Translations under genes and position numbers: made by a program
Shown: positions 4,615 through 25,556 of the stretch, one piece after another
Position numbering within the stretch: the first letter of the stretch is position 1
How the letters are laid out: each line of letters starts with the position of its first letter
Assembly (NCBI GenBank): GCA_903928075.1
Contig: CAIYPD010000052.1
Span: 11,876-75,875 of the forward strand
From: Candidatus Firestoneibacteriota bacterium
GTDB lineage: Bacteria; Oederibacteriota; D2-FULL-39-29
Length of the DNA stretch: 64,000 nt
Direction: 5' to 3'
The notes under the pieces: model-generated
Database searches by the model: none
What the model saw: only the letters and a program-made list of their open reading frames with translations
Told to the model about the DNA's origin: nothing

Positions 4615-4627
4615 AGGTTTTTCTCCC

Positions 4628-8939: not shown

Positions 8940-9011
8940 ATTCTCTCCGTATTGTAAGCATACAAGCTAGCAAGACTACAAGCAATAAACTCGTTTATCA
9001 TCTATCATATA

Positions 9012-10136: not shown

Positions 10137-10165
10137 AGACTTCCTTGCCGGGTGTTTTAATCCGG

Positions 10166-11092
10166 CTAATTTAGCGGCTTGCCGGCCAGAGGCGGGTCTA
10201 ATTTATCAAGCGCAATGTTAAACTGCTTAAGTATGGTGGGTGTTATATCGGCCTGGGTCCCGCTATTTTTAACTGTTTTGTCATTTGTAGCCAGAAAAAT
10301 ATCAGGCGCATCCGGATGATTATTCGTCCCTTCATTAAATCCGTGATCAGCAGTAACATAAATAAGGGTCTTGCCGTAAATATTTAACACTTTAAGCTTT
10401 GAGATTATTTTTCCGACCAGAAGATCGCAGTTAACAAGGGCCCCGGTATAATCCGCAGAACCTTCCCCGAAGGAATGTCCGGAGGTATCCGGATCGGCAA
10501 AATGAAAAAACATAAAAAACCTTTTATCTTTATAGTTTTCAATGTATTCAAGGCCCTTGCCGGTCACAGTTTCGGCGTCATTTACAGAGCCCCCAAACCA
10601 GGAATCCAGCTGTTTTTTTGCGTTAAAGTAAGGTTCACCTTTTTGAAGATACTTCGGCAGCTTTTTATCCTGAAGTGCCTCCGGGCCCAGCGCCCCGAGA
10701 TATTTCGATTTCCCCATCAGAGCCACGGCGACAATGTTTTCTTTTCCCAGACCCTTTTTAAGTCTTTCAAATATAGTGTACCCTTCCGGAATGGGCTCGT
10801 ACCTTTCATTATTGGTAATTTTATTTACCTTACTGGTAAGTCCCGTCAACATTTGCGCATGCCCGGCGCTGGTAACCGTGCCATGCCCCGTAACCTGAAT
10901 AGAAACAAAAGCGCCTTCTTCTTTCAGGGTTTGCAGGGCCGGTAATTTTTTTTCAGCCATAAGCGCTTCGACACGCTTCCTTCCGGCACCGTCCCAGGAA
11001 ACGAGAATTGCATTATAGGTCTCAGCCGATACAAAAACTACAAGAAGTAGAAATAGAAGCAGCGACTTTACAAAATCATAACGCAGTTTCAC
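10166..11092 (-). CDS. Alkaline phosphatase superfamily protein
   Basis: SWDG, TVTSAGH (Thr nucleophile), DTSGH and TADHG. Start proposed at GTG 11092 behind AAGGA; the ORF track start is 11155. Confidence 0.8.
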   Translation of the reverse strand: MKLRYDFVKSLLLFLLLVVFVSAETYNAILVSWDGAGRKRVEALMAEKKLPALQTLKEEGAFVSIQVTGHGTVTSAGHAQMLTGLTSKVNKITNNERYEPIPEGYTIFERLKKGLGKENIVAVALMGKSKYLGALGPEALQDKKLPKYLQKGEPYFNAKKQLDSWFGGSVNDAETVTGKGLEYIENYKDKRFFMFFHFADPDTSGHSFGEGSADYTGALVNCDLLVGKIISKLKVLNIYGKTLIYVTADHGFNEGTNNHPDAPDIFLATNDKTVKNSGTQADITPTILKQFNIALDKLDPPLAGKPLN

Positions 11093-11185
11093 AATAAGTT
11101 TCCTTTTAGAGAAGATGACAAGAACACAAGACTGAAGCAAGAAAATTAATTTCACATATTTTTTGATATCTTTTATTCTTCTTTT

Positions 11186-12007
11186 CTAATAAATCTTCAA
11201 TACTTTCTTCATTAGAAGGGAAAAGGGTATTACCAGAATCATATAACCTACGATCCAGGCCTGCATAACCCATATTCCCGGAACAAAGCCGAATAATTTA
11301 TATTCTTTTGAAACACTCTCAATTACATCAATTCCGCCGTCAGAATAAAACATTACAGGCTCGGCGTACTTTAATCCGTCGACGATAAGTTCTTTGTTGA
11401 AAGTTTTACCGTTAAAACGGAGGACCAGAGAATAAGGCTTGCTTGTTTTTTCACAGAGCAACTTCCACTCCGCAACCCCGTTAATTACCGCCCCTGTGGT
11501 TTTATCTACATCTTCTTTCACCTTTTCTATCCAGCCATTCTCAGGTTTTACTCCGTTTTGAGGAAGCATATGAACATAAGAACCGATACTTGAAACAGGA
11601 AAGTAGGCCTTGACAGCTACAGGTTTTGACGGGTCTGATGGTAGATAGGCAATACGGGTAAAACACCAGATTGCCACAAGCGAAATAGGAATAAGCGAAG
11701 CCAGCAGGGGCTTTCCTTCCGCTTGAAAGATCTTCATTTCAACCTGCTGTTTGGTCGAACGGTATCTAGCCAGGGCTTCTTTATCTTTTTTCTTTTTGGC
11801 TTCCTTGATAAGCGCCGCAAGGCGAATCTTGTCCTCATCGCTGCGTTTTAAGTGTTCCTGGTTTGTAGAAAATAACCTGACCAGCGTAAGGATAAGCGCA
11901 GTACCGGTGCCTACAATAAACAGTGTTAAATCTCTCGGCAGATAGAGTAACCAGCCAAAAAGAAAATCAGTAATAGACATACAGATTATCGTAAGGGTGT
12001 TAAGCAT
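11186..12007 (-). CDS. EMC3/TMCO1 (DUF106)-like membrane protein, Oxa1 superfamily candidate
   Basis: TM helix, basic coiled coil (EDKIRLAALIKEAKKKKDKEALARYRSTKQQ), TM KPLLASLIPISLVAIW, soluble insert and terminal TM WIVGYMILVIPFSLLMKKVL. ATG 12007 has an AAGGAGG RBS. Confidence 0.65.
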   Translation of the reverse strand: MLNTLTIICMSITDFLFGWLLYLPRDLTLFIVGTGTALILTLVRLFSTNQEHLKRSDEDKIRLAALIKEAKKKKDKEALARYRSTKQQVEMKIFQAEGKPLLASLIPISLVAIWCFTRIAYLPSDPSKPVAVKAYFPVSSIGSYVHMLPQNGVKPENGWIEKVKEDVDKTTGAVINGVAEWKLLCEKTSKPYSLVLRFNGKTFNKELIVDGLKYAEPVMFYSDGGIDVIESVSKEYKLFGFVPGIWVMQAWIVGYMILVIPFSLLMKKVLKIY

Positions 12008-14786
12008 TGCCTTCCTCCTTGATAATGGAAATGTGTCCCGTGTCACCGTTTACCTGGACTTTGGAGCCGTCTTTAATAATTGAGGTGGCATCCGAACAAG
12101 CCACAGCAGGTATGCCAAAATCCCGGGCCGTAATAGCCCCGTGGGAAAGTATTCCGCCGCGGTCCACCACGAGCCCTTTTATCGTAATAAAGAGCGCCGT
12201 CCAGCTGGGATCAGTCGAGGGGCAGACCAGGATACAATCGTCGCCCAGGTTTTTTGCGTCCCCGGGATGATAAATAATATGTGCCGTTCCCACAACCACA
12301 CCGCCGGAAAGCGAAACACCGGTCATCTCATTTGTGGAAGCAAATACCCTGGGAAGGCCGAGTTCGTCCAGCTTTGCGGAATTAATAACATCCGGAAGAT
12401 CCAGTTGTTGATAGGCTTCCCAGCGCACTTTCCGTTTTTCTATTTCTTCCGTCAGTTTTTCCGTATTAGCCTCAAAACCGGTAAGTTCGTTAAGCTGAAG
12501 ATAAAATACATCGTTACCGATGTTCCAGCGCCGGCCGAGTTCCAGGAGAACCATACGAATCTGCTCATAACCCTGCATAAGATAATGTTTGCCGATTTCG
12601 CGGTATGGCAATAAAGTCTGCGCCTCTCTCGCAAGTTCTTCTATATCTTCCCGGAGGGAACTGGCCCCGAGCGGGGCAAGCACCGTTTGCAGGGTTTTCA
12701 TCGCTTCTTCCCTTTTTTCTTTTCCTGTTTCGTGCATTTTTTCCGGGGAATAACCTTCATTTGTTTTCTGGCTTTCGATTATCTGTTTTAAATAACCCGC
12801 ATCTTCGTTCCAGCGGGGTTCTGCAAGTTCCATCTCCCCGACTGCGCGGTGGCCGAATTTTTCCAGAAAATCTTTCAGTTCCGCCTTACCTTTTGAAACT
12901 TTATAGAGCATTATATTTTGCTCCATCGTAGAGTCGTTCTCCAGGCCCGAAGTAAGCACCTGGCAGTACTTTGGCCCTTCAACGGTTCCCATTATCTGAA
13001 CCAGCATATTTTCCAGCTGGGCCAGCGCAGTACCGCCGAAAAATCCCGGCTTTAAGGACTCCTTTCCAAAATCCGTCATAATATGCGAGATACGGTACTG
13101 CAGCTCTTTTACAACTTCAGCAGTTTTTAATTTTGTCAGATTCTGTTTTTCTTTTTCTTTAAGATAAGCAACATACGCGGGCAAAATCTCTTTATCAAAG
13201 ATCTCCCGGGAATGAAGTCTTGCTTTTTTCATTATTCTGGACGAACGGATCATCGCTATAACCGTTCCCGGCAAGCGGAGCAAGAAGGCCTGATCTGCTT
13301 TTTTTGCATCAAATTTCTTAGGCGCAGCCTGGAGAATGAGAGGATCATTTAAAACCTCTTCCTGGTCATAGTAAAACGGGAAACCCTTCCAGAAGAGCTC
13401 GGGAACCCGGTCTGAATCTGCGTAGATCCTGCCGCAAAGCAAGTCTAAGAAACCTTCTTCACAAACGACCTGGCTGGGACGGTAGCCAAAATCCTGGTAC
13501 ATCATACCAAAACCACCGTTACCGCTCATAAACTCTTTTATAATATCCCAGGTCATAGGCGTGGGTGTAGTCAGGGTCTCAGCAAGATTGTGCACAATCC
13601 AAACCTTGCTTTTTTCTTTCGCCAGTTCCTTTATCCGCGCAACCTCTTCGAGGCGGCTTCTTTCTAAGGCTTTTTTAGCCTCCAGACCTTTAATGGAGCG
13701 GGACTGCAGGAGTGAAAATTTACCGTTTTCGAGGCCCCATTCTATATCTACCGCAACTTTGAAATAGTCTTCCACTTTCAAAGAGATGCAGGCTAGCTCA
13801 GCCACTTGTTCTTCCGTAAGCGATGCCGCATGGGGATCCAGTACCTTCATACTTTGCCCCAGGCCGGCAACAATAAAAGATTTATTTCCCAGGGTGGTTT
13901 CTTTTATCTTCATAGTGGTGCGGTCCAGCACAAATCTATCCGGGGTGACATTACCGGAAACAATGGACTCGCCCAGGCCGTAGGTACTTTCTATAATAAT
14001 CTCATTGGCCTCGGGATTTACCGGATTAGCGGTAAAGGTGATACCCGAAACCTCCGAGTTAAACATCTGTTGAATATTAACCGCTGTGCCTTCCATGTTT
14101 TCCATACCGTGCGCTTTACGGTAAATCTTAGCCCGTTCGTTGTTCCAGGACTCAAAGACCGCATTAACACACTGGAGCAGAGACTCCCAGGGATCTAGCG
14201 GGAATTTTTTGCCGGTTTCTTTTTCATAAAGTTTAATATAACCCAGCGCCGCGGTTTTTTCGGGATCTTTGCCGCTTTTTGCTGCCTTCACGATTTCTTC
14301 GAACGGTTCGGAGGGTAGTTTTGCCACCGTCTCAGCAAATTGCAGGATGAACTGGGCATAGACCGACCAGAACTGGGGCTTATCCGAAACCTCCGCTTCA
14401 AGTTCCGGGCTTAGACCGCAATTTAAAATAGTATCCATCATCCCGGGCATGGATTTCGCCGCGCCTGAACGGACGGAAACCAACAGAGGTTTTTTTCCTT
14501 TACCAAAGGTTTTTCCGGAAACTTTTTCGAGCCGGGCCATATATTTCTTCAGATTTGCTTCAAGTCCTTCAGGCCATTTCTCGTTATTTTCATGATAGTA
14601 TTTACAGCAGTCGATAGAAAGCGTGAAGCCGGGCGGAATAGGAAGTCCGGCCTTACTCATGGAAGCAAGACTTGAGCCTTTCCCTCCCAGCACATGTTTA
14701 TGTTCCGGGTTACCTTCACAGCTCCCTTCGCCAAAAAAGAAGATATTGCCGTTAAAACCGGCTATTTTGTTTTTGGTTTCAGGCAT
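12000..14786 (-). CDS. PEP-utilizer-family dikinase with rifampin phosphotransferase/PigC-type architecture (ATP-grasp, substrate domain, His swivel)
   Basis: GGKG..L, LLVSVRSGA..SMPGMMDT, YGLGESIVSG, DIEW..LLQSR, FGHRAVGEMELAEPRW and C-terminal LSHGAITARDFGIP. No pyruvate-binding barrel. ATG 14786 has an AAGGAGG RBS. Confidence 0.85.
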   Translation of the reverse strand: MPETKNKIAGFNGNIFFFGEGSCEGNPEHKHVLGGKGSSLASMSKAGLPIPPGFTLSIDCCKYYHENNEKWPEGLEANLKKYMARLEKVSGKTFGKGKKPLLVSVRSGAAKSMPGMMDTILNCGLSPELEAEVSDKPQFWSVYAQFILQFAETVAKLPSEPFEEIVKAAKSGKDPEKTAALGYIKLYEKETGKKFPLDPWESLLQCVNAVFESWNNERAKIYRKAHGMENMEGTAVNIQQMFNSEVSGITFTANPVNPEANEIIIESTYGLGESIVSGNVTPDRFVLDRTTMKIKETTLGNKSFIVAGLGQSMKVLDPHAASLTEEQVAELACISLKVEDYFKVAVDIEWGLENGKFSLLQSRSIKGLEAKKALERSRLEEVARIKELAKEKSKVWIVHNLAETLTTPTPMTWDIIKEFMSGNGGFGMMYQDFGYRPSQVVCEEGFLDLLCGRIYADSDRVPELFWKGFPFYYDQEEVLNDPLILQAAPKKFDAKKADQAFLLRLPGTVIAMIRSSRIMKKARLHSREIFDKEILPAYVAYLKEKEKQNLTKLKTAEVVKELQYRISHIMTDFGKESLKPGFFGGTALAQLENMLVQIMGTVEGPKYCQVLTSGLENDSTMEQNIMLYKVSKGKAELKDFLEKFGHRAVGEMELAEPRWNEDAGYLKQIIESQKTNEGYSPEKMHETGKEKREEAMKTLQTVLAPLGASSLREDIEELAREAQTLLPYREIGKHYLMQGYEQIRMVLLELGRRWNIGNDVFYLQLNELTGFEANTEKLTEEIEKRKVRWEAYQQLDLPDVINSAKLDELGLPRVFASTNEMTGVSLSGGVVVGTAHIIYHPGDAKNLGDDCILVCPSTDPSWTALFITIKGLVVDRGGILSHGAITARDFGIPAVACSDATSIIKDGSKVQVNGDTGHISIIKEEGNA

Positions 14787-17416
14787 ATAAAGCCCTCCTT
14801 GTCTGTCGCAAAATAGATACTCGACTCCACCATGATCATGGGGGTCGTCATAACTCCGGGCCAGGAAGCGCGAATCTTTGACCACTGCGCACTCTTTCCC
14901 GATTTCAAATCATAAGCCAGAATAGATTCTTTTGCCCCGTAAAGGAGCATATCCTCAAGAAGTAAAGGCGGGAAGTTGCCGAGAGCTTTTTGATCTTTAA
15001 TCCTTGGCATTTCAATACCCTTCTCGGTATCTATTATAACCACTTCTCCGTTCTCCGTTACACAGGCCAGGCGGTCAAGATTAAAGACCAGAGGGCTGGA
15101 AACAGCGCCGCATTTAATTGAATGAACCAATTTACCGGCAGGTAAGTCATAGCTTCTTACCCCGCCCGTCTCGCCCACCCAAATCAGGCCTTTTGCAAAA
15201 ACCGGCCCGGTTTTAGGTGCAGAAGTAAGAGGCTTTTTCCAAAGTGTCACGCCCGCTTCCAGATCAAGAGCAACAAGCACTGCGTTCTTATCTTTAGTTG
15301 CAACAGCAATTACGATATCTTCGGTAAATGCAGGCGCACCGGTTAAGGCGCCGGCCTCCGTTTTCCACAATTCCTTTTTTACCGCCGGCGTTTTGATATC
15401 CAAACAGGAAAGGCCTTTATTTGTATCGGCAATAAGAAGTTTTTCTTTGGCAATAACAAACTCCCCGCTGCCGTCACCTACGGTATACTGCCAGAGTTCT
15501 TTACCTGTCTTAGGCTCCAAACAATGCAGGGCGCGGTTTTTATCGAAAGCACGGCCGTCGACAAAAAATACCGCTTCCTCGTTTAGCGCTGCGGAAATAT
15601 AGACCGGGTTTTTCGCCGGCGCAAACCACTCGCGGACCGGGGGAGAACCTGCTTTTTCCCCGCTCTTAAGTTTTACCAGACCAAAACCGGTTTTTTCCTT
15701 GGAGGCAAGGTAAAAGGCACCTTTGAGATAAGCGCCCGGAGTATGAATTAAAGACAGACTTTCTTCGGAATCTTTTGGTGCACCCGGATAACCCCAGGCA
15801 TATTCACCTCGCGGGGGAAGCAGGCTTCCGTCCAACCAGCCGGACTTACCCATCCCGCCCAGACTTCCTGCCCAAAGAGCCTTTTTCTCTTCCCCACCCG
15901 GCTGACCTACGCATAAAAGGCCATTATTAGTAGTTCCAATATAGATGTGCCCCAGAGCCACCGCAGGGGAACTCATAGTCGGGGAATTAAGTGCAATGTT
16001 CCAGGCCGGAAGAAAACTTTTCTTGTCTATGCCCCAAATCTGGCCTGCTTCGGTAACTATATAGACATTTTCGGTCCCGATAGCCGGAGAAGTAACAAGC
16101 GGCGCGTGCGCGTTCCACTTGCGGAGCAATTTCCCTTCGGTGGATATGGAATAAATATTTTTATCCCGTGATCCAAAATAAAGAACATCCCCGTCCACGG
16201 CGACAGAACCTAATACCGTGTCAGCAACCGTAAACTTCCAGGCCACCTCGTGACTTAAAAGATCAATACACCAGATCTCGCCGATGGGTTTTATATCCTT
16301 TACTGCTTTTTGAATTTCCGCAGCACTTTTGCCTTCTTTTTCAAGTTTCAATCTGAGATTACTCGCAACAACTTCCGCGGTGTTTACAAAATCTCCGTGC
16401 CCCATTCCGACATATAGTTTATTTTTCGAGATTGAGGGACTGCCAAAGACAGGATACGGCGTTTTTATCTTCCATAGTTCCTTACCGGTAGCAGCATCCG
16501 CGCAAACCACTGCCTGCCCGTCTATACCCAGGCAAAAATACACCTTGCCTTCATATGCCACAGGGGAAGACTCGCAATCAGGATAGTCTTTAGCCTCTAG
16601 GTGCCAGAGAAGCCGGGCATTGCCGTCTTTATCAGGCTCAAGATTAAAGCAGTACAAACCATCACTGCCGGCGCCGACATAAACCTTGCCATCGGCAATA
16701 CAAGGAGAGGATTCGACATGACTCTTAGTCCGGAAAGACCAGAGTTTAACACCTTCGCGTTTTTTTTCGCTTTGTTCTATATCCAGACAAAAGACCCGGG
16801 CATCCGAGACAAAATGCAAACCTTCACCCACAACCAGATATTTGCCAGAAACAGAAGGAGAAGAGAAGGTGGCCCGGTAACCTGCCTGATAAGACCAAAC
16901 CATCTTGCCGGTCTCGGCATCAATGCTATAAATTGCCCCATTATTTTTGAAAAATTCATAACGCGCAGAAGTGCTGTACAAACGGTTACCTATCACACCG
17001 GGCGAAGAATAGAATGTTTTAATACCGTCATACGAAAAGGCCCAGTTAACTTTACCGCTAAGCGGGTCTTTTGCGCCGGGCACCGAACCTTTGCGTTCAA
17101 GGCCGCCGCGAAACATCGACCATTCGGTTTTACCTTCCCCGATTGAGGCCTTTGAAACTGTCCCCTTCCACATAACAGAATAAAACCGGGTGCCGCCAAA
17201 GATAACCAGCACAATAATAACAACCGCTATCTTTTGAGCCCATAGAAGATGCAATAATTTTTTCAGTGTAGAAGGCTTAAAGAGAGAGAGCAGGAGGCTC
17301 CCTATCGCGATCATGATAGCCGGCAGGAGGGCAATAAGCGCCTGCAGTGGGCCTACAAGAATCGGAACAACAGCTACTGAATTTTCAGTCAGCTTCAGCA
17401 CAACAGATAAATTCAT
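14762..17416 (-). CDS. Membrane-anchored PQQ-type (BamB-like) beta-propeller repeat protein, probably two propellers
   Basis: N-terminal hydrophobic helices, WSMFRG.., and many SSP...G.VY.G / DA.TGK.LW repeats; a second propeller begins near WAGSLGG. Confidence 0.85.
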   Translation of the reverse strand: MNLSVVLKLTENSVAVVPILVGPLQALIALLPAIMIAIGSLLLSLFKPSTLKKLLHLLWAQKIAVVIIVLVIFGGTRFYSVMWKGTVSKASIGEGKTEWSMFRGGLERKGSVPGAKDPLSGKVNWAFSYDGIKTFYSSPGVIGNRLYSTSARYEFFKNNGAIYSIDAETGKMVWSYQAGYRATFSSPSVSGKYLVVGEGLHFVSDARVFCLDIEQSEKKREGVKLWSFRTKSHVESSPCIADGKVYVGAGSDGLYCFNLEPDKDGNARLLWHLEAKDYPDCESSPVAYEGKVYFCLGIDGQAVVCADAATGKELWKIKTPYPVFGSPSISKNKLYVGMGHGDFVNTAEVVASNLRLKLEKEGKSAAEIQKAVKDIKPIGEIWCIDLLSHEVAWKFTVADTVLGSVAVDGDVLYFGSRDKNIYSISTEGKLLRKWNAHAPLVTSPAIGTENVYIVTEAGQIWGIDKKSFLPAWNIALNSPTMSSPAVALGHIYIGTTNNGLLCVGQPGGEEKKALWAGSLGGMGKSGWLDGSLLPPRGEYAWGYPGAPKDSEESLSLIHTPGAYLKGAFYLASKEKTGFGLVKLKSGEKAGSPPVREWFAPAKNPVYISAALNEEAVFFVDGRAFDKNRALHCLEPKTGKELWQYTVGDGSGEFVIAKEKLLIADTNKGLSCLDIKTPAVKKELWKTEAGALTGAPAFTEDIVIAVATKDKNAVLVALDLEAGVTLWKKPLTSAPKTGPVFAKGLIWVGETGGVRSYDLPAGKLVHSIKCGAVSSPLVFNLDRLACVTENGEVVIIDTEKGIEMPRIKDQKALGNFPPLLLEDMLLYGAKESILAYDLKSGKSAQWSKIRASWPGVMTTPMIMVESSIYFATDKEGFICLKPKTK

Positions 17417-17442
17417 AACTCTTCTCCTTTTAGAACAAGATT

Positions 17443-17476
17443 CTCCGCTCTTGGCGAAATCTCACCAAAGGTGAAC
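17443..17476. repeat. REP-like double-hairpin element, copy B (degenerate)
   Basis: CTCCGCTCTTGGCGAAATCTCACCAAAGGTGAAC; a single hairpin unit TCCGCCCAGGCGGA also lies at 17531-17544. Confidence 0.75.
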
Positions 17477-17484
17477 ACTAAAAA

Positions 17485-17669
17485 AATATCCTACAAAGAT
17501 TTTAAACCTTACGCTGCTAAAAGCGCAGCTTCCGCCCAGGCGGATGCTCAAATATCATAATATTTACATTTTTGAAGGCAGCTACACAAATATCCTTCCA
17601 CGATTTTAGACCTTATAAATCTTACGAACCTTAAAAACCTTATCTCGCTTTGTCAAAGTATTTTGACAT
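17485..17669. repeat. Two copies of AATATCC-N6-GATTTTARACCTTA with a 9-bp array
   Basis: Copies start at 17485 and 17589; the array runs 17602-17643, followed by TATTTTGACAT as at 27710. Confidence 0.75.
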
Positions 17670-17725
17670 CTATATATCATTCCTCTCGAGAAAAGCTTTG
17701 CTTATAAACTTTACTAACTCCGCGT

Positions 17726-19606
17726 CTATTTTATTTTATTAAGTATCACGCGGACTATCCCGCTTTTTACCACTACTTCTTTTTCCTGTTGTTTCCCGTC
17801 AGGAGTTTGCCACCGGAGCGTTACGGGGCCAGCCTCAGGCATTCCTACAAGGGCCCCTGCCTCTCCGGATTTAATCGTCCAGCAACCCAAACATCTTTTA
17901 TCTTTCCAGGCGGTAAAAGTAAGCGGCCCTGAATAAAGTCCGGTAAGAGAAAGAACGGCATTTACAGCCAGAGCGCCTTCCTCTGCCTTGCGAGGAAAAA
18001 GCCAGAACTCCCCGTTATTTAAAACAAGCGCCATATCCAAAGCTCCGTCCCCGTTATAGTCCAAAAGACAGCTTACCTGCTGGCCGTCATTTGACTCGGG
18101 TAAGGCCTGGTCAATATTCAGTTCCCGGGCATGACCAAAACTGCGGAAGCCGCGGTTAAAAAATATCTGGGTAGTCATTGTCGCATAAGAAATAAGGACA
18201 TCCTGCCGGCCGTCGTTGTTTATATCTCCGATTGACACAGCTGTTCCGCCGGGGCGCCACATATAAGAAATCTCGCCGGAAAGTTTTATTAGTTCAGAGA
18301 ATTTTGCGCTTCCCAGGTTCTGCCATATACGGCACTTGTCTTCACTTGCAATAAAAACATCCGGTAACCCATCAGCATCAAAATCTCCCGAACAGGCCGA
18401 AAATCGTCCTTTGCCGGCTTCTATATTAACAGCAACCGGCGAGGCGAATACTCCCGCTGCTTTTCCTTTATAAAACAGGCTGTTTTCCGAAAACACTTGC
18501 AAAATGTCTATTACTCCGTCACCGTCAAAATCTGCGGTCAAACACTGCCCGCCGCCGCCAAAATTCCTCCCTGGAAATTCACCTTCCACCAGAGCTTCGG
18601 CTTTCAGACTGCCGTCAGGCTGCGGAATTAGAAATACAGGAGAAGACCCTGTACTTGCTAAAAGCACGGCACGCCCTTTTTCGCCAAAATCAAGGCAGGT
18701 CAAAGCCACGCATCCGTCCTTTAAAGCGGCTCCAACCGCGCAATTCTTTTTTTCAAAATTCCCGTCTTTTTTTTGATAAAATATATTTATTTCTTTACCA
18801 TTCCAGCTTGCCAGGTCAAGCCGGCCGTCTCCGTTATAATCTCCCCAGGCATAGGCAGTCGAAGCTGAACTCAAACCCAGTTTAGCGGTCACATCCGTGA
18901 AAGTTTTTCCGGTGTTGCGATAAAGCAGGTCTCCGTTTTTCGAGGCCAAAAATAAATCCGCCCGGCCATTTTCCATAACATCCACCGGGAGAATAGAATT
19001 AATTTTATTCTTAATTAGTCCGACTTTTAGTTTATCGTTCCACTCGACGCCCACATTTATGGGTACGGTGGCATCCTGGTCGGACTGAATATAATTTACC
19101 GCACGAATCAACATCTCCGTACTGCCGGACCAGGTCCCGAGCAGGTAGTTTTCAACTTTGACCATATCCCAGATATTATTTTTACCTTTCATGAAATTTA
19201 CCCAGCGCCACGGTGAGTACTGATTACCATAATGAAGAAAACCCGTAGTCTGGTCTCCGGAGCCTTCGACGCCGACATTCTCAACTTTAAAGGTTCCGAT
19301 GAAAACGACTGCCTCGCGCTGCCCCTCTTTTATTCTATTTATGAAATCTTTGCCATCCTCAGGCAGAGCACCGGCCATGAGATCCAGCGTAAGTTCTTTC
19401 TCTTCCGTCTTTCCTTTTAGAACTTTCGTAATTCCGGCAACAGCCTTTCCGTCTTTATCCACGCTTTTAAAATCCAACAGGAGAACCAATTCCGACTGTC
19501 TTACCATATCTACGGGAGTGAAATTAGGATTAATGAAGGCATGAACCGCTCCGCCAAGCATAAAAAAAACAAGCAGAGATACAAACAGTTTTCTAGAATA
19601 TAGCAC
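17726..19606 (-). CDS. Secreted FG-GAP/VCBS repeat protein (Ca-binding beta-propeller, CRTAC1-like)
   Basis: Signal peptide ending AVHA; repeats GDYNGDGRLDL, ADFDGDGVIDI, GDFDADGLPDV, GDINNDGRQDV and DYNGDGALDM. Confidence 0.85.
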   Translation of the reverse strand: MLYSRKLFVSLLVFFMLGGAVHAFINPNFTPVDMVRQSELVLLLDFKSVDKDGKAVAGITKVLKGKTEEKELTLDLMAGALPEDGKDFINRIKEGQREAVVFIGTFKVENVGVEGSGDQTTGFLHYGNQYSPWRWVNFMKGKNNIWDMVKVENYLLGTWSGSTEMLIRAVNYIQSDQDATVPINVGVEWNDKLKVGLIKNKINSILPVDVMENGRADLFLASKNGDLLYRNTGKTFTDVTAKLGLSSASTAYAWGDYNGDGRLDLASWNGKEINIFYQKKDGNFEKKNCAVGAALKDGCVALTCLDFGEKGRAVLLASTGSSPVFLIPQPDGSLKAEALVEGEFPGRNFGGGGQCLTADFDGDGVIDILQVFSENSLFYKGKAAGVFASPVAVNIEAGKGRFSACSGDFDADGLPDVFIASEDKCRIWQNLGSAKFSELIKLSGEISYMWRPGGTAVSIGDINNDGRQDVLISYATMTTQIFFNRGFRSFGHARELNIDQALPESNDGQQVSCLLDYNGDGALDMALVLNNGEFWLFPRKAEEGALAVNAVLSLTGLYSGPLTFTAWKDKRCLGCWTIKSGEAGALVGMPEAGPVTLRWQTPDGKQQEKEVVVKSGIVRVILNKIK

Positions 19607-19774: not shown

Positions 19775-22492
19775 CTACTTCTTTTTGCCTATTTTCTGTT
19801 CTGCTTCACCTGCCAGAACAAAGAGTTTTTCCGCTTGATTCTGCCAGCCGGACCCGAGAAAATAGTTATGACCCGCAACACCCGGGCCCCACCGCCACAT
19901 ATTGAAACCGCCAAACGCGGTGCTGATTTCCATATTACTTAAGGTTTTCCACATATCGTAAAGCCTTTCATCCAGTAGAGCCTGACTGCGCTTGCAAAGG
20001 TCGGACCCCATCCTGGCTTTTGAACCGCTGTCCAAAAGCGCTTTCTCAAGATAAATTCTGGCCTCGCAGGCCTCCACTCCTTCAATCATCGCGATTAACC
20101 TGTTCGTAGCCTCCGGCCCTTCTGCTCCCGGGGCCAGTATGGGATTACAAAGATTTAAGGCAATGGAAGTACCACCCCAACATCCCTCCCTATAACGGTC
20201 ATGCACATAATTGACCCGGCGACCGTTCTTATCCTTGACGGCCTTCCAGTAGTCGGCGCCGATACGCCCTATACCCCTGAGTTCGCTCGTTATTCCCGTC
20301 TCCGGGAAAAAGTACCAGCGGGTCGCAGGGAAAGTGTCCAGGTTTACATTGCGTTCGAAGACCGCGTCCAACCTGGGATTATTCCAGCCCTTTAAGCTCT
20401 CCGTTACGGGTTCACCAACCTGGTTGGTCTGTTTACAGCCGTCGCCAAAACGAAAGCCGCCCCACACAGTGGCATTATACCCGACATCAGATATACTTTG
20501 AAGTTTGGTAAATAGCCCGTGTCCCTGTTGCACCCAGGGCACCTTTGGTACAATATCAAAGAAAAATTTCACATCCTCGACCGGAGGAATAGCGTCACAG
20601 AACATACCAAGCATAAGAGCTTTTTCCAGCCCGCGTTTTTTTAAACGGGCCTGGACTTGAAAGATAAGTTCTTTCCAGATAGCCTTACTGGCAGAATCGC
20701 TCAGAGCGGGAAGTTTTCCAAACTCTGTTTTTCCCGTGGCAGGGTCAACAAATGTTACCTGGGGATAACCCAGCGCGGCAAAATCCTCGAATCTCTTCTG
20801 CATAGTAGAACGGAAATAGACCTCCCAGACCTGAAGAACCACAATCTTGGGAGTGCCCAGGTTTTTTTGCGCCAGGTCGAGATACTTTTCCATAATGGAA
20901 AAATCCCAGTCATATTTGTTTTTGCCTTTATTTATCCAACGGATCATCGACTCTTCATTACCAAGGTTGGTATGTGCAATAGCAGGAATATAGACGGTCC
21001 TGGTCCCGGCAGCGCTCATAAGCCTGAATGATTCTGCGATCATCTCCAGATGTTTGTCCGACCAAAGCGGCACTTTATATTCTTCCACCAGTGTATCCGG
21101 CGACTGAATAAGATCTACCCAGGTGCGGTAGTCCTGCGCATCGGGCAGGGAAAAGGAAAGCACCTTCAGTTCCACCGGGACAATTATGTCTTTTTCCCCG
21201 GCAGTACTTATAGTAAGGTCTCCGAAATAGATTCCGGGTGAGGCCTCTTTGGGTATTTTCACGGTAAGCCAGACCGGGGCCACGGCGCCGGCAGGGGATT
21301 TGCCCGCCGCTTTTCCGGGAGAGTATTCAGGAAGAGGTTTATTGCTTAAACTGCCCATAAAAGTCGTTGCAGCAAGATACGGATTAGGCTGGGCATGATA
21401 AGTTTGATTTGTTATTATTTCCTGACCCCAGGGGACACCGTAGCGGATTCTGAGAGCATCCGCGGAAATTATCGAAGCGACCCCTTTAAGTTCTCCGGCA
21501 GAAGCAGAAAGTCCTTTAATTGAAGAGGTAGAACCTACGAGTACTTTTCCGGAAAATATTCCATTACGCGGTCCCGTAATTTTAATAGGCTTAAGCGGTT
21601 CAGCCGGATTTCCGAAATCCCGGTCATAATCTCCTGCCAGAATATCGGCGTTCCATACCTGAAGCCCTTTAGGTCTTCCCGGAGTTGCAACCACGCCTTT
21701 TTCAGAAGCAGCGGTCAACTCAAGTTTTATCATACGGCAAGTCGCCCAAAGAAATTCATAAGCTCCGCCGTTTGGTTTTGAGGTATCCACCTTACTAAAG
21801 GCTTTTCCGTACGGCGCCCGGACAACTTCTATACACAGAACATTAGCTCCCTTCTTCAAAGTTCCGGAAGGAATTTTAATAGCCGCTTCCCTCAACCAGA
21901 GCCCGGTACGCCTTATGGATTCCGAGTTATTGGCAGCTTTATTTCCGCTTAATTTTGCGCCGGGCGGCCCCAGCCAGATACCGTTATCTGCGACAAAGGC
22001 CTCTTCGGGATAGTTCTCAGCAAAGATTTGAGCTTTGGGATCGTTCCTTTTATCTTTGGCTATATTATTTCTGCCAATCTCTTCTCCGTTCAAATAAATA
22101 ATTATTCCACCGCGGTATTGCGCGGTGAGCGTTAAATCTCCTGATGCCTCAGGATCGGTAACGGTAAAAACTCCTCTAAGGTAAAGCCGGTCCAGCATTG
22201 AGACATTGGGCGCAAGGGTTACGGGCCCTCTAAGCCAACCGGAATCGTCCATCCCGGATTTATTCCAATCTGCCGGAACTTTAGCCGATGGTGAATCCGC
22301 CCACTTTATTTTAAGCACAACCGGTTTATTTTCAGCCGCGGATTGTATCACCGGCGGTTTTATTACACTAAACATACGCCAATTACTGTGCGTATCCAAA
22401 AGAGTAACCTCGGAGGCCGGCAGAACTGACATGAGTCCAAACAATAAAAGTGACACCGCAAAGAAAATACCTTTTCGAAAAACAGTATTCAT
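19775..22492 (-). CDS. Secreted ~900-aa GH123/DUF4091-like protein, paralog 1
   Basis: Signal peptide, galactose-binding-like N-domain (YRGGIIIYLNGEE), LIQSPDTL..EY, DFSIMEKYLD and C-terminal EGVEACEARI. Start moved to ATG 22492. Confidence 0.65.
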   Translation of the reverse strand: MNTVFRKGIFFAVSLLLFGLMSVLPASEVTLLDTHSNWRMFSVIKPPVIQSAAENKPVVLKIKWADSPSAKVPADWNKSGMDDSGWLRGPVTLAPNVSMLDRLYLRGVFTVTDPEASGDLTLTAQYRGGIIIYLNGEEIGRNNIAKDKRNDPKAQIFAENYPEEAFVADNGIWLGPPGAKLSGNKAANNSESIRRTGLWLREAAIKIPSGTLKKGANVLCIEVVRAPYGKAFSKVDTSKPNGGAYEFLWATCRMIKLELTAASEKGVVATPGRPKGLQVWNADILAGDYDRDFGNPAEPLKPIKITGPRNGIFSGKVLVGSTSSIKGLSASAGELKGVASIISADALRIRYGVPWGQEIITNQTYHAQPNPYLAATTFMGSLSNKPLPEYSPGKAAGKSPAGAVAPVWLTVKIPKEASPGIYFGDLTISTAGEKDIIVPVELKVLSFSLPDAQDYRTWVDLIQSPDTLVEEYKVPLWSDKHLEMIAESFRLMSAAGTRTVYIPAIAHTNLGNEESMIRWINKGKNKYDWDFSIMEKYLDLAQKNLGTPKIVVLQVWEVYFRSTMQKRFEDFAALGYPQVTFVDPATGKTEFGKLPALSDSASKAIWKELIFQVQARLKKRGLEKALMLGMFCDAIPPVEDVKFFFDIVPKVPWVQQGHGLFTKLQSISDVGYNATVWGGFRFGDGCKQTNQVGEPVTESLKGWNNPRLDAVFERNVNLDTFPATRWYFFPETGITSELRGIGRIGADYWKAVKDKNGRRVNYVHDRYREGCWGGTSIALNLCNPILAPGAEGPEATNRLIAMIEGVEACEARIYLEKALLDSGSKARMGSDLCKRSQALLDERLYDMWKTLSNMEISTAFGGFNMWRWGPGVAGHNYFLGSGWQNQAEKLFVLAGEAEQKIGKKK

Positions 22493-22510
22493 AAAATACC
22501 CCCGTAATAT

Positions 22511-22545
22511 AAAGTACAAAGTACGAAGTAAAAAGTACAAAGTAA
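22511..22545. repeat. 7-bp tandem array (AAAGTAC x5, degenerate)
   Basis: aaagtac aaagtac gaagtaa aaagtac aaagtaa. Confidence 0.8.
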
Positions 22546-22643
22546 AAGAAAATAACCAAAGCATTATTTATGATATATAATCGAAAAGCATTTTGTAATA
22601 TTAATTATCATCCATTATGCATTATCCATTGTTATATCTTTTG

Positions 22644-22683: not shown

Positions 22684-25416
22684 CTATTTCTTCTCCAGTT
22701 TCTGCTGTATTTCTCCGGCAAGCAGGAAAAGATCTTCTGCTTGTTTTTGCCAGCCTGAGCCGAGGAAATACCTGTGGCCAGAAACTCCGGGAGACCAGCG
22801 CCAGCCGGCAGCGTTAGCATATCCGGGACCGTTAAGCTGCAGATTACTAAGAGTGCGCCACATATTAAGTAGGCGTTCATCCAGGGCGCTTTCACAACGC
22901 CCGGTCAGTTCAGCCCCAAGTTTAGCTTTGCTTTCCAGAAGAGCCTTTTCTATATATATTCTTGCTTCACACGCCTCGACCCCTTCCATAAGCGCTATAA
23001 GGCGGTTCGTGGCTTCGGGCCCGTCTTTTCCGGGCGCAAGCACAGGATTACAGAGGTTAAGAGCAATCGAGGTTCCGCCCCAACAACCTTCTTTGTACCG
23101 GTCATGAACATAGCTGGAGCGGCGGTCGTTTTTATCTTTAACGGCCTTCCAGTAATCACCGCCAATTCGGCCTATGCCTCTAAGCTCACTGGTGACACCC
23201 GTTTCCGGAAAAAAGTACCACCGGCTGGCGGGATAGGTATCAAGTCCCACATTGCGCTCAAAAACAGCGTCCAGCCTTTTATTGTTCCAGCCGCGCAAAC
23301 TCTCGACGATAGGAGTCCCCTTTTGATTGGTCTGTTTACAGCCATCCGCAAAGCGAAAGCCGCCCCACACGGTTGCATTGTAACCCACCTCGGCTATGTC
23401 TTGAAGTTTTGTAAAAAGTCCGTGCCCCTGCTGCACCCATGATAATTTAGGCGCTGCATCCAGAAAGAACTGCACATCCTCTTTGGGGGGTATTGCGTCA
23501 CAAAACATTCCGAGCATCAGGGCCTTATCCAACCCGCGTTTCTTAAGCCTTGCCTGCACCTGTTCAATAAGTTCCCGCCAGACAGCCTTGCTTCCGGGAT
23601 CACTTAGCGGGGGTAGTTTGCCGAACTCCGTTCGTTTTGAGACAGGATCGACAAAGGTGACCTGCGGATAACCCAGGCTGACAAAATCCTCAAATCTCTT
23701 TTGCATCGTGGCGCGCATATAAACTTCCCAGACCTGAAGAACCACAATCTTGGGGTCACCCATATTTTTCTGCGCCAGGTCCAGGTATTTATCCATTATG
23801 GAAAAATCCCAATCGTACTTGTTTTTGCCTTTTTTTATCCAGCGGATCATCGACTCTTCGTTACCAAGATTGGTGTGGGCCAGCGCCGGAATATAAACTA
23901 TTCTCGCACCCGTTCCTCCCAGCAGACTGAAAGATTCCGCAATCATTGCCATATGTTTTTCCGACCAGAGCGGCAGCTTATATTCGAGCGCCAAAGTATC
24001 GGGAGACTGGATAAGGTCGACCCAGGTACTATAGTCTTGCCGGTCCGGCAGCGTATAGGGCAGCACTTTTAATTCCACCGCCGCAGCAATATCTTTCGCA
24101 CCCGATGTTTTAATAGTAACGACACCCGTGTATAGCCCGGCCGGCGCATCCTTGGGAATATTTACCGTAATCCAGACGGGCGCAACCGCTCCGGCCAAAG
24201 AAGATCCGTTTGCCTTGCCCAATGTATATTCTTTCGGCGGATTATTGCTTAAAGAAGCCATAAGTAAACTTCCAACGGAATAAATCGGTCTCTGTTTATA
24301 GTAGGTTGCATCATTTGTACTTTCCATTCCCCACAGCACACCAAAGCGTATCTTTATTGCGGAAGCCGGAATCTCTGCCGGACCTTTAAGTCCACCTGCC
24401 TTTACCGAAAGCCCCGAAATAACCTTCGTAGATCCAACAAGTACTTTGCCCGAGAAAATACCGTTACGGGGTCCGATGATCTGTACAGGCATAAGCGGCT
24501 CTGCCTGGCTTCCGACATCAAGGTCATAATCTCCGGCAAGAATATCTCCATTCCACGCCTGGATTCCCTGCGGTCTGCCGGTATTGGGCACCAGCCCCGA
24601 AGATCCCGCGGCCGTCAACTCCGCTCTCACAATCTGGCAGGTAGCCCACAGGAACTCATGAGGAAAACTATTTACGCGCTTTGGCATCTTTACTTTATTA
24701 AAAGCTTTATCGTAAGCCGTGCGTATAACTTCGATACCCAGTACATTTACGCCTTTTTTTAGAGCTTTTGCCGGAATTTTTATAATCGCACTTCTTTCCC
24801 AGCGTTCCATGCGCTTTTTGGAATCTTCCGTCGGTGGCACTCCATTGGGTTTTCCGTCCAGATATGATCCTTCGGGACCCAAATACATCCCCTTATCTGT
24901 AACAAAAGCTTCTTCAGGGTATTTTTCGGCAAGAATAACCGCCTTGGGATCACTTTTAATATCTTTTGCTATATGTGAACGGCCCGCTTCTTCCCCGTTT
25001 AAATACACAATTATTCCGCCGTGATAATTAACGGATAAATTCAGCGTACCCACGCTTGAAGGATTGGTCACTGTAAATTTACCCCGCAGATATAGCCGCT
25101 CCAGCATAGCCGTCTCGGGTGAAACCGTAAGCGGCCCGCGCAACCAGCCGGAGTCGTCAAGTTCCGGTTTATTCCAGTCCAGAGGTGCCGGGAGAGTATC
25201 GGAATCCAGCCATCTTATTTTTGCTTTGACAATCTCAAGCGCCCCGGCCTCCTGAATTACGGGCGGTTTTATTACACTGTACATCCGCCAGTTACTATAT
25301 GTATCAAGAACAACAGTACCCGCAGCAAAGGAAACTACAGGCAGTAAAATTAGGACAGAGAAAGCGGTTATAAGCATGTTTAAGGTCTTTGAACTTTTGT
25401 TTTTAAATCCCGTCAT
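22684..25416 (-). CDS. Secreted ~900-aa GH123/DUF4091-like protein, paralog 2
   Basis: Very similar to paralog 1; ATG 25416 has a GGAGG RBS (the ORF track start at 25512 is too long). Confidence 0.65.
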   Translation of the reverse strand: MTGFKNKSSKTLNMLITAFSVLILLPVVSFAAGTVVLDTYSNWRMYSVIKPPVIQEAGALEIVKAKIRWLDSDTLPAPLDWNKPELDDSGWLRGPLTVSPETAMLERLYLRGKFTVTNPSSVGTLNLSVNYHGGIIVYLNGEEAGRSHIAKDIKSDPKAVILAEKYPEEAFVTDKGMYLGPEGSYLDGKPNGVPPTEDSKKRMERWERSAIIKIPAKALKKGVNVLGIEVIRTAYDKAFNKVKMPKRVNSFPHEFLWATCQIVRAELTAAGSSGLVPNTGRPQGIQAWNGDILAGDYDLDVGSQAEPLMPVQIIGPRNGIFSGKVLVGSTKVISGLSVKAGGLKGPAEIPASAIKIRFGVLWGMESTNDATYYKQRPIYSVGSLLMASLSNNPPKEYTLGKANGSSLAGAVAPVWITVNIPKDAPAGLYTGVVTIKTSGAKDIAAAVELKVLPYTLPDRQDYSTWVDLIQSPDTLALEYKLPLWSEKHMAMIAESFSLLGGTGARIVYIPALAHTNLGNEESMIRWIKKGKNKYDWDFSIMDKYLDLAQKNMGDPKIVVLQVWEVYMRATMQKRFEDFVSLGYPQVTFVDPVSKRTEFGKLPPLSDPGSKAVWRELIEQVQARLKKRGLDKALMLGMFCDAIPPKEDVQFFLDAAPKLSWVQQGHGLFTKLQDIAEVGYNATVWGGFRFADGCKQTNQKGTPIVESLRGWNNKRLDAVFERNVGLDTYPASRWYFFPETGVTSELRGIGRIGGDYWKAVKDKNDRRSSYVHDRYKEGCWGGTSIALNLCNPVLAPGKDGPEATNRLIALMEGVEACEARIYIEKALLESKAKLGAELTGRCESALDERLLNMWRTLSNLQLNGPGYANAAGWRWSPGVSGHRYFLGSGWQKQAEDLFLLAGEIQQKLEKK

Positions 25417-25497
25417 AAAGGTATTCCTCCTAAAAAAGTTAAAAAACCCTATGCCTTGCAAAGACAAGAAGGCATTGAGCTGTTGATTACCTGTGCA

Positions 25498-25556
25498 GGA
25501 ATATGATTCCAACTTTTACCTTATTATTTTAACACTTACATTATGGAATATGAACG
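25498..25556 (-). promoter_or_regulatory. Candidate promoter with a paired operator-like GGAATATGA repeat
   Basis: Minus strand TTCATA-N17-TAAAAT. GGAATATGA occurs at 25498 (inside the palindrome GGAATATGATTCC) and at 25545. Confidence 0.4.

Follow-up and report, generated by a model that had tools for sequence, protein, structure and literature searches.

Rifampin phosphotransferase (RPH) is a free cytoplasmic enzyme. In the RPH/PEP synthase family (PEP, phosphoenolpyruvate) ATP is split into AMP and Pi, and the beta-phosphate is passed via a histidine to a hydroxyl or enolate acceptor. Here we describe a locus in which an enzyme of predicted RPH architecture is encoded together with membrane and predicted periplasmic proteins. 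The locus lies at positions 11186-19606 of a 64-kb stretch of a Candidatus Firestoneibacteriota genome (contig CAIYPD010000052.1); this whole stretch is denoted here the window. It comprises four genes, encoding a secreted propeller (denoted FG-GAP), a membrane-anchored double propeller (PROP), a dikinase (DIK) and a membrane protein of the DUF106 type (DUF106-like). DIK has the same order of ATP-grasp, helical central domain and C-terminal swivel histidine as RPH-Lm (5hv1, 5fbs), and the catalytic histidine is kept. Unlike RPH, with which it shares only 20-22% identity, DIK is always found beside or fused with a membrane protein.

Phenylphosphate synthase/HpeHI, PigC/RedH and glucan water dikinase likewise combine an ATP-grasp with a swivel histidine and use acceptors other than pyruvate. 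To our knowledge, none of them is coupled to a membrane. HpeI is among the Foldseek matches of DIK (9goj, E 1.8e-13) and the NCBIfam models of PigC and RedH match DIK partially, but DIK scores far below the cut-offs of these non-pyruvate dikinase families (for example, 232.8 vs 1300 for PigC). DIK also resembles Enzyme I of the phosphotransferase system (PTS) in its homologous phosphohistidine mobile domain and in the tie between phosphorylation and a membrane component. Unlike in the PTS, the phosphate donor of DIK would be ATP, via the ATP-grasp, and not PEP, the membrane partner has another fold, and the loci are without HPr or EII genes.

On the membrane side, DUF106-like shares with Ylp1/MJ0480 and TMCO1/EMC3 a three-helix core and a cytoplasmic coiled coil between the first and second transmembrane helices (TM1 and TM2). 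It differs from them in being bacterial, in carrying a beta-sandwich insert, in being coupled or fused to a dikinase and in coexisting with YidC. The module recalls the endoplasmic reticulum membrane protein complex (EMC) in combining an Oxa1-type subunit with a membrane-anchored, non-cytoplasmic double PQQ-like propeller and in placing a cytoplasmic partner on the coiled coil. The first-pass annotation of this DNA had drawn an analogy to EMC1 and EMC3, which holds at the level of architecture only: PROP scores 17.1 bits on the Pfam EMC1 propeller model (cut-off 34), has no C-terminal helix and is anchored N-terminally, not C-terminally as EMC1 is. Moreover, the EMC has no kinase whereas this module has DIK, and other EMC subunits were not seen. 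BamB, a lipoprotein of ~390 aa with a single propeller, shares with PROP the PQQ-like propeller, and PQQ_2, the Pfam family that matches PROP, bears the description 'Outer membrane protein assembly factor BamB', the name that PROP would receive from automated annotation. Unlike BamB, PROP is 884 aa long and has two propeller regions and an N-terminal membrane hairpin.

Searches of the open literature (PMC, bioRxiv) returned no description of a dikinase combined with a DUF106-like protein and a propeller, and PADLOC, which covers known anti-phage defence, matched 0 families for 5 proteins at E <= 0.001; the first-pass annotation likewise knew of no characterised system with this combination. 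Every part comes from a known superfamily, and these searches brought up no characterised system with the same combination; its function is what we infer from the relatives. It is almost certain that the genes form a genuine, self-contained functional module and that its DIK and DUF106-like parts act as a single unit. The invariant core is PROP, DIK and DUF106-like; the main clade adds the secreted FG-GAP protein and expanded GH123-like proteins.

Conservation of the core and fusion of its parts

We compared 41 non-redundant other loci, 14 from named metagenome-assembled genome records and 27 from a Planctomycetota sample; every locus in this study stems from a metagenome-assembled genome. The counts omit L001 (the window's own genome), L002 (a short copy of the sister locus), L046 (on the same contig as L010) and tblastn pieces of <100 aa or E > 1e-6; short locus versions L017-L045 were replaced by L046-L073 before counting. 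DIK lies <=300 bp from the DUF106-like gene in 41/41 loci, and PROP lies <=4 kb from it in all 33 loci that have at least 4.8 kb upstream. The gene order is PROP-DIK-DUF106 everywhere except in L053, where it is PROP-DUF106-DIK and still contiguous.

The Planctomycetota sample consists of 401 genomes, the four family searches being taken as covering the same 401 from their recurring handles. The DUF106-like gene was found in 29 of them. The central region of DIK is present in all 29 carriers (E <= 4e-55) and, more weakly, in 12 further Planctomycetota genomes, which constitute a sister clade. FG-GAP orthologs (E <= 1e-40) were detected in 21/401 genomes and the GH123-like subfamily in 23/401, in both cases exclusively in carriers of DUF106-like (21/29 vs 0/372 and 23/29 vs 0/372, respectively), contrasts that describe a pattern and are not a test, as kinship links the genomes. 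In five carriers whose locus has no neighboring FG-GAP gene, a full-length ortholog was found elsewhere in the genome (5/5), and five non-carriers chosen for their large size have none (0/5). Together, the locus and genome counts demonstrate that the genes are grouped far beyond chance, and bear out the prediction of the first-pass annotation that they would co-occur elsewhere.

Loci of the sister clade were fetched from 8 of the 12 genomes (G261, G406, G289 and G064 were left out). In 6/8 loci (L074, L076, L077, L078, L080 and L081) the reading frame of DIK extends through a DUF106-like domain, reaching a length of 1048-1259 aa; L075 ends at a contig edge and L079 is without a DUF106-like C-terminal region. 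The C-terminal region of the fused proteins, ~330-400 aa long, contains one extra hydrophobic helix followed by the DUF106-like domain, and the His domain is almost directly followed by a membrane helix. The extra helix is accounted for by topology, because a cytoplasmic enzyme joined to an N-out membrane protein needs one more crossing. Alignment of the six extensions with the DUF106-like family using hhalign gave a probability of 98.2% (E 2.8e-14) over 264 columns, from TM1 to TM3. In addition, 19 public database proteins of 1174-1221 aa have the same fused build, one of them labelled Verrucomicrobiota. At 7/8 sister-clade loci the fused gene has PQQ-like propeller genes beside it, and true FG-GAP proteins are encoded in 3/8. 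As both clades share the propeller, the dikinase and the DUF106-like domain, these three constitute the minimal core. The sister clade has no close FG-GAP or GH123-like orthologs at the thresholds used, indicating that these two families are not needed by the core. A candidate fusion in the main clade, in G224, was rejected: its 936-aa frame is a high-GC read-through upstream of a normal 270-aa DUF106-like gene.

Structure prediction of a complex of DIK residues 376-928 with DUF106-like yielded a score of 0.56, rated as weak support, the best of 3 controls scoring 0.00; at least 97% of the contacts recur between runs, and the pLDDT (model confidence) of the partners is at least 79. The mark for such scores is reached by 58/80 solved complexes and 2/110 mismatched pairs, and it was passed with a score of <=0.60 by only 7 of the 80 solved complexes and by both passing mismatches, counts that hold only roughly here as custom alignments were used. 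Taken alone the predicted complex is not persuasive, and it agrees with the fusion. Regarding the interface that the first-pass annotation had named as a check, the DIK/DUF106-like contact is weakly predicted and the joining of the two into one protein in the sister clade is more telling.

Layout of the locus and its proteins

All genes of the window are on the minus strand. The features of the locus are as follows:

22684..25512, minus strand: GH123-like secreted protein, paralog a; accessory, multi-copy family; start uncertain (open reading frame listed from TTG)
19775..22564, minus strand: GH123-like secreted protein, paralog b; accessory, directly upstream of FG-GAP
17726..19606, minus strand: FG-GAP, secreted FG-GAP/VCBS-type propeller, 626 aa; accessory, 1-5 copies per genome
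17417..17725, no strand: AT-rich spacer of 309 bp between FG-GAP and PROP, read from the sequence
14762..17416, minus strand: PROP, two N-terminal membrane helices and two PQQ-like beta-propeller regions, 884 aa; predicted periplasmic
17168..17383, minus strand: N-terminal membrane hairpin of PROP, residues ~12-83, from ortholog N-termini
14762..14786, minus strand: overlap of PROP stop and DIK start, 25 bp; PROP stop TAG at 14762-14764
12000..14786, minus strand: DIK, three-domain phosphohistidine dikinase of RPH architecture, 928 aa; ATG at 14786
12141..12143, minus strand: codon of the DIK swivel histidine H882, computed from the start at 14786
12000..12007, minus strand: DIK stop inside the DUF106-like start region, ATGCTTAA; DIK stop TAA at 12000-12002
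11186..12007, minus strand: DUF106-like, DUF106/EMC3/TMCO1-type (Oxa1-superfamily) membrane protein, 273 aa; ATG at 12007
11699..11860, minus strand: basic cytoplasmic coiled-coil hairpin of DUF106-like, residues 50-103; AlphaFold2 (AF2) helices 50-72 and 76-103
11270..11647, minus strand: beta-sandwich insert of DUF106-like, residues ~121-246, from the AF2 model; predicted periplasmic

FG-GAP, PROP, DIK and DUF106-like are co-directional, and the last three overlap. AAGGAGG is found 7 nt upstream of the DIK ATG, the PROP stop being 25 bp inside DIK, and ATGCTTAA at the DUF106-like start is also preceded by AAGGAGG. Re-reading of the sequence showed the four open reading frames, the overlaps and the ribosome sites to be exactly as first annotated. 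FG-GAP, described there as just upstream of PROP, is indeed upstream on the same strand, but the AT-rich spacer intervenes; in the sister genome (L003) the corresponding gap is only ~20-40 bp, compared with 309 bp in the window. The promoter candidate proposed ahead of FG-GAP is without statistical weight, the region containing 12 promoter-like hexamers as against a mean of 11.5 in shuffled sequences, which is not above chance. Terminator-like sites number 18 (11.8 +/- 3.5 expected), all of them inside genes. Operon boundaries thus cannot be drawn from such sites. The set of four proteins was recognized correctly, but a fifth co-occurring family, the GH123-like proteins encoded directly upstream, had been missed.

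The Pfam search assigned PPDK_N to DIK residues 32-374 (E 4.4e-58) and the PEP-utilizers mobile domain to residues 849-917 (E 7.4e-20), and did not find PEP-utilizers_C (PF02896). The protein is laid out as an ATP-grasp (1-375), a central domain (~376-848) and a swivel His domain (849-928). The central domain is predicted to be helical, in place of the PEP/pyruvate TIM barrel, given the lack of PF02896 and the full-length Foldseek match to RPH: the AF2 model of DIK, built from 33 orthologs (pLDDT 87.8), has 5hv1 as its best match (E 1.4e-37, ~1000 alignment columns, 22% identity). RPH is also the best PDB sequence match (E about 1e-59), with PPDK matched too; by sequence the N-terminal domain is nearer PPDK than RPH, and residues ~380-620 have no PDB sequence match. 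H882, S881, G883 and the ATP-grasp motifs are invariant in the 33 orthologs, and comparison with PDB sequences aligned H882 with the histidine of the RPH His domain. The NCBIfam models of PPDK, PEP synthase, RPH, PigC and RedH all score DIK far under their cut-offs (265.5 vs 843 in the PPDK/PEP-synthase example; 257.3 vs 999 bits for the RPH equivalog NF041857). By these curated thresholds DIK is an enzyme of predicted RPH architecture and is not RPH, PigC, PPDK or PEP synthase.

Contig C12 of the same genome encodes a true PPDK, a 914-aa frame combining PPDK_N and PEP-utilizers_C. PEP-utilizers_C occurs in this genome only on C12 and on C101, where the gene is Enzyme-I-like. The absence of this domain from DIK and the PPDK on another contig uphold the earlier view that DIK is not a plain PPDK/PEP synthase. 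Canonical YidC is also encoded in the window's genome; as the genome has its own YidC and PPDK, DIK and DUF106-like are additions to the housekeeping set and not replacements. Sequence-based topology found no hydrophobic segments in DIK. Its hairpin 499-599 is positively charged (net charge +5 as the median over the 33 orthologs), and helix 499-547 is amphipathic and basic, features that would fit membrane apposition. We noticed that the relatives of DIK all carry the precomputed Pfam family PF27448.1; PF27448 may be a recent curated model of the DIK central domain.

DUF106-like scores 26.9 bits on the Pfam EMC3_TMCO1 model (PF01956; E 4.9e-6), slightly below the gathering cut-off of 27.1, and 24.1 bits in a six-frame search; many close relatives carry a precomputed PF01956 assignment. 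The AF2 model, from a 22-sequence alignment (pLDDT 89.7), consists of TM1 (25-47), the coiled-coil hairpin (50-72/76-103), TM2 (105-118), an all-beta region (~121-246) and TM3 (250-269), that is, three membrane helices and a cytoplasmic coiled-coil hairpin between TM1 and TM2, the build of the DUF106 family. The insert between TM2 and TM3, ~125 residues long, shows strands only in the model, and its H146, W159, W181 and Y214 are invariant or nearly so among relatives. The hairpin has a net charge of +6 in the window protein and a median of +8 in 22 relatives. The 22 relatives all keep R44, located where TM1 ends on the cytoplasmic side; this residue, a candidate for the conserved positive charge of the hydrophilic groove, aligns with a lysine of MJ0480, and the family profile matches this archaeal YidC-like protein (5c8j, E 1.9e-5). 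Foldseek of the model against the PDB gave nothing at E <= 0.001, only scattered beta-sandwich rows. Exhaustive VIA-align comparison placed 7tut chain 8, which we take to be TMCO1, at the top (177 residues, Z 11.5, rmsd, or root-mean-square deviation, 2.9; the next row 9.2), with an alignment of 136 residues extending from TM1 to TM3 (model residues 21-273). An excerpt of PMC12572126 presents 7tut as a metazoan multipass translocon. By the modelled fold and by profile, DUF106-like is a member of the DUF106/Oxa1 superfamily, borderline by Pfam score.

The PF01956 model matched 3/14 control genomes, all three archaea, and DUF106 is described as archaeal and eukaryotic in an excerpt of PMC5868721. 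A collection clustered at 90% contains 61 relatives of DUF106-like, and the profile search raised the number of representatives to 281 at E <= 1e-30, 637 at E <= 1e-10 and 978 at E <= 1e-3. A second EMC3_TMCO1 match in the window's genome (G000:C24:18453-18680; 18.2 bits, E 0.002, in a 529-aa frame) is probably noise.

PROP is matched by PQQ_2 (E 1.4e-48) and Beta-prop_ACSF4 (E 3.1e-53), in four stretches each. Its hydrophobic segments, residues 12-49 and 53-83 with a basic loop between them, are N-terminal only. The first helix is Pro/Gly/Gln-rich and strikingly conserved across orthologs, several of which have it directly after a signal-peptide-like segment ending in Ala-x-Ala, suggesting that the N-terminus faces outward, the loop is cytoplasmic and the propellers are periplasmic. 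PROP falls far below the NCBIfam cut-offs of the BamB, AfsK and quinoprotein families (BamB models TIGR03300, 111 vs 285.2, and NF008351, 92.8 vs 423). Weak matches to Beta-prop_EMC1_N were obtained with PROP (E 0.0047) and with a sister-clade propeller (E 5.9e-5), both under the cut-off. By these scores PROP is a predicted generic PQQ-like double propeller, and not a member of the BamB or EMC1 family. In the most divergent unfused loci (L072:8535-12449 and L073:8205-11888) PROP has insertions and a long C-terminal extension; an extra gene between PROP and DIK, considered for the divergent loci, is not there, PROP itself being longer (1227-1304 aa).

The FG-GAP protein matches Pfam FG-GAP_3 in 4 stretches (E 1.2e-35, 122.4 bits vs a cut-off of 26.9). 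Signal-peptide-like N-termini were found in this protein, in all five GH123-like paralogs of the window and in the phosphoesterases encoded downstream; FG-GAP has no hydrophobic C-terminal segment. We noticed a short motif at the mature N-terminus of FG-GAP, directly after the predicted signal-peptide cleavage site, that is kept across phyla and could be a docking or sorting element.

Among the GH123-like proteins, paralog a has GH123_cat (E 7e-15) and GH123 N-terminal domains behind a hydrophobic signal-like N-terminus, and paralog b has GH123_cat (E 3.2e-18) and orthologs upstream of FG-GAP in L003-L009. The GH123 catalytic model gave 66.6 bits (cut-off 23.1), covering only model positions 2-159 of 324, and the GH123-like profile matches 5l7v (E 6.3e-28). 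The founding members of GH123 act on glycosphingolipids. The five paralogs in the window are ~900 aa each and start at 19775, 22684, 32477, 36162 and 38954 (span 19775-41635). The 2.7-Mb genome contains 23 GH123-like stretches at E <= 1e-40, with copies also on contigs C38, C103, C90, C70, C47, C18, C84, C96 and C14; C38 carries a second FG-GAP copy beside an array of four shorter GH123-like genes.

A putative membrane phosphotransfer module and its alternatives

The co-occurrence of the genes, the fusion and the enzyme being other than PPDK support the envelope-spanning machine proposed by the first-pass annotation; none of the observations that it had named as contrary, namely genes that do not co-occur, no predicted interface or a plain PPDK/PEP synthase, was made. 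The data show gene content and order, the coupling, conservation and genome-level co-occurrence of the genes, the fusion, the folds and intact motifs for catalysis (the histidine and the ATP-grasp); from these we infer a physical complex of the unfused proteins, docking at the membrane, what the acceptor is and which way transport runs. As a specific mechanism we tentatively put forward a membrane-docked dikinase that phosphorylates a membrane-borne acceptor, the product going to the periplasm. DIK would dock on the cytoplasmic face of the DUF106-like subunit and, as other water dikinases, would take the beta-phosphate of ATP onto its swivel histidine (ATP to AMP and Pi). From there the phosphate would go to an acceptor borne by the membrane or offered in the hydrophilic Oxa1-type groove, most likely a lipid or lipid-linked glycan with its head group. 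The product may next be exposed or flipped by the groove to the periplasmic side, where the beta-sandwich, the propellers and the GH123-like proteins may bind or process it. Insertases of the Oxa1 superfamily are reported to scramble lipids, in an excerpt of 10.1101/2023.09.01.555937. In a fuller version, which is doubtful, a groove protein of the archaeal/eukaryotic Oxa1-superfamily type would have become the membrane part of a phosphotransfer enzyme instead of a general insertase; the docked or fused dikinase would phosphorylate a lipid or lipid-linked glycan at the groove, and the product would be flipped to an EMC1-like propeller platform serving the many GH123-like envelope proteins. If true, such a flipping machine would be the first enzymatically coupled lipid or glycolipid transporter of the Oxa1 fold, and bacteria would have an equivalent of EMC3-EMC1 that travels from phylum to phylum in cassette form.

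Apart from mechanism, the locus defines a bacterial DUF106 branch of several hundred sequence clusters that invariably comes with an RPH-type dikinase and a periplasmic propeller and in some cases is fused. It allows asking whether Oxa1-fold grooves serve enzymatic or lipid-handling roles beyond protein insertion, offers a prokaryotic arrangement for comparison with the EMC3-EMC1 core, and provides a functional lead on a large unnamed 'PEP/pyruvate-binding' protein family and on the expanded GH123-like proteins of Planctomycetota.

Several results weigh against the phosphotransfer mechanism. The accessory genes are close by in about half of the loci, FG-GAP at <=8 kb in 13/24 and a GH123-like gene at <=10.5 kb in 12/26, and close orthologs of both are missing from the sister clade. 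Kinship among genomes means that contrasts of the 21/29 vs 0/372 type overstate their statistical weight. The complex score is weak and comes without a contact list, and no RNA dataset was listed that contains 11186-17416. Catalysis by the GH123-like proteins cannot be shown: the catalytic residues of GH123 are an adjacent Asp-Glu pair, a 10-sequence GH123-like alignment has no invariant adjacent Asp-Glu, and the alignments to the GH123 structures 5fqe and 5l7v stop short of the pair, at about chain residues 288-291. An acceptor did not emerge from the loci, which are without an obvious gene for a lipid- or glycan-carrier enzyme. Finally, the known members of the DUF106/Oxa1 superfamily (Ylp1/MJ0480, EMC3, TMCO1, Get1 and YidC) are all protein insertases according to an excerpt of PMC5868721, which favors an insertase as the alternative.

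According to that alternative, which we consider unlikely, the locus encodes a dedicated EMC-like insertase or assembly machine, in which DUF106-like is a true Oxa1-type insertase acquired beside YidC. It would insert or hold the N-out hairpin of PROP, or mature FG-GAP and GH123-like cargo, with the periplasmic propellers as a chaperone platform and with DIK modifying a client or gating the machine. Classic substrates of the superfamily have a first helix of N-out orientation whose translocated tail is short, and the single-copy triad together with multi-copy FG-GAP and GH123-like proteins restricted to carriers resembles systems of sorting enzyme and cargo. The module resembles EMC3/EMC1 in pairing an Oxa1-type subunit with an exoplasmic double propeller anchored in the membrane, and PROP and a sister-clade propeller give the weak, sub-cut-off Beta-prop_EMC1_N matches noted above. 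Substrates of such insertases have 'small translocated regions' (PMC5868721, in excerpt). However, DIK is the tightest partner of DUF106-like, within 300 bp of it at all 41 loci compared and fused with it in the sister clade. We know of no insertase that needs a phosphohistidine dikinase. In addition, the genome keeps its canonical YidC, the FG-GAP and GH123-like N-termini are ordinary signal-peptide-like ones, the FG-GAP protein lacks a hydrophobic C-terminus, and PROP falls short of the EMC1 family.

Distinctly unlikely is a capture or uptake module akin to group translocation. Here GH123-like and FG-GAP proteins would release an external or envelope glycan product, the propellers and the beta-sandwich would bind it, and the membrane subunits would pass it inward, where DIK would trap it in the cytoplasm through phosphorylation. 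The neighborhood is rich in glycan-active candidates (in the window, a polysaccharide deacetylase and a beta-helix protein besides the 5 GH123-like paralogs) and the GH123-like family is expanded in carriers, as in the 2.7-Mb genome with its 23 stretches. PTS Enzyme I, whose swivel His domain shares homology with the one in DIK (weak NCBIfam PTS_I matches), is a precedent for membrane-coupled phosphorylation, and plant glucan water dikinases phosphorylate glycans. Yet Oxa1-type proteins offer a groove in place of a through-channel, and we know of none that imports solutes; the sister-clade core does without close GH123-like or FG-GAP orthologs, and the GH123-like catalytic residues could not be verified.

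Transmembrane sensing, in which PROP and the beta-sandwich perceive a periplasmic ligand and switch on DIK via the DUF106-like subunit, is very unlikely. The substrate of DIK would then be a soluble metabolite or xenobiotic, as in an RPH-like detoxifying phosphorylation. PQQ-like propellers are sensor domains in Ser/Thr kinases like AfsK, whose NCBIfam model matches PROP partially (E 1.1e-22, far under the cut-off), and RPH-type enzymes act on soluble small molecules, as judged from PDB titles. Against this, a signal transducer of the Oxa1 fold is without precedent, the membrane helix directly after the His domain in the fused forms places catalysis at the membrane and not in the bulk cytoplasm, and the co-occurring secreted families are left unexplained. 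That there is no system, and an ordinary PPDK/PEP synthase gene stands among envelope genes by chance, is practically out of the question, even though the automated names of relatives include 'pyruvate,water dikinase': the domain content (no PEP-utilizers_C), the NCBIfam scores and the separate PPDK on C12 refute it, and synteny, phyletic pattern and fusion argue against coincidence. Some probability, about as much as for the insertase alternative, is left to explanations outside this set.

Apparent spread between phyla and neighboring genes

In a sample of 41 genomes of the window's own phylum, DUF106-like and FG-GAP were each found in 2/41 genomes, both times the window's genome and a congener, and the GH123-like subfamily in 3/41. 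A scan with one genome per species detected 14 DUF106-like loci; one is from Candidatus Firestonebacteria, namely the window's congener (83% identity), and of the others, eleven bear Planctomycetota lineage names, one is labelled Anaerolineaceae and one only 'bacterium'. Single named hits were also seen in Verrucomicrobiota and Kiritimatiellia. L004, the locus labelled Anaerolineaceae, shows near collinearity with L007, which is labelled Phycisphaerae, and strong similarity to it; the taxonomic label of L004 may reflect a binning or labelling problem.

A midpoint-rooted FastTree of 33 DIK orthologs, whose branch supports were not inspected, places the Firestonebacteria pair as a tip clade inside Planctomycetota-labelled sequences. 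The G+C content is 0.455-0.495 at 12-26 kb of the window and about 0.42 at 8-12 kb, a step over the module and the GH123-like genes that is consistent with foreign origin. Together, the nesting in the tree and the G+C content suggest acquisition of the whole cassette by Firestonebacteria, passed between phyla from a Planctomycetota-type source into the window's bacterium. Such an apparent transfer into a Firestonebacteria genus suggests that the cassette is a portable working unit. The DNA datasets that contain 11186-17416 are freshwater or lake metagenomes from 6 studies, of which 2 rows may be the source sample.

Downstream of DUF106-like we found no conserved gene: the sole recurrence in the first 14 loci is an esterase-like open reading frame in L010 and L011. 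In the window, 7830-11155 contains genes for two purple-acid-phosphatase-like proteins and one protein of the alkaline-phosphatase/phosphodiesterase family, all secreted; the phosphodiesterase gene (10166-11155) is missing from the sister genome. Phosphoesterases were also seen elsewhere, PhoX at L010:877-2292 and weak matches resembling purple acid phosphatase or phosphodiesterase at L048:14892-15770 and L069:9965-10696. Their recurrence, which is not conservation across loci, would be suggestive if the product of the module is a phosphoester.

Further away in the window, 3826-5428 contains two tandem paralogs, each with a PilZ domain and a cyclic-nucleotide-binding domain. Two overlapping tandem transglutaminase-like genes, with weak Pfam matches just under the cut-off, are located at 29068-31349, and a URO-D-like gene (31440-32435) adjoins this pair.

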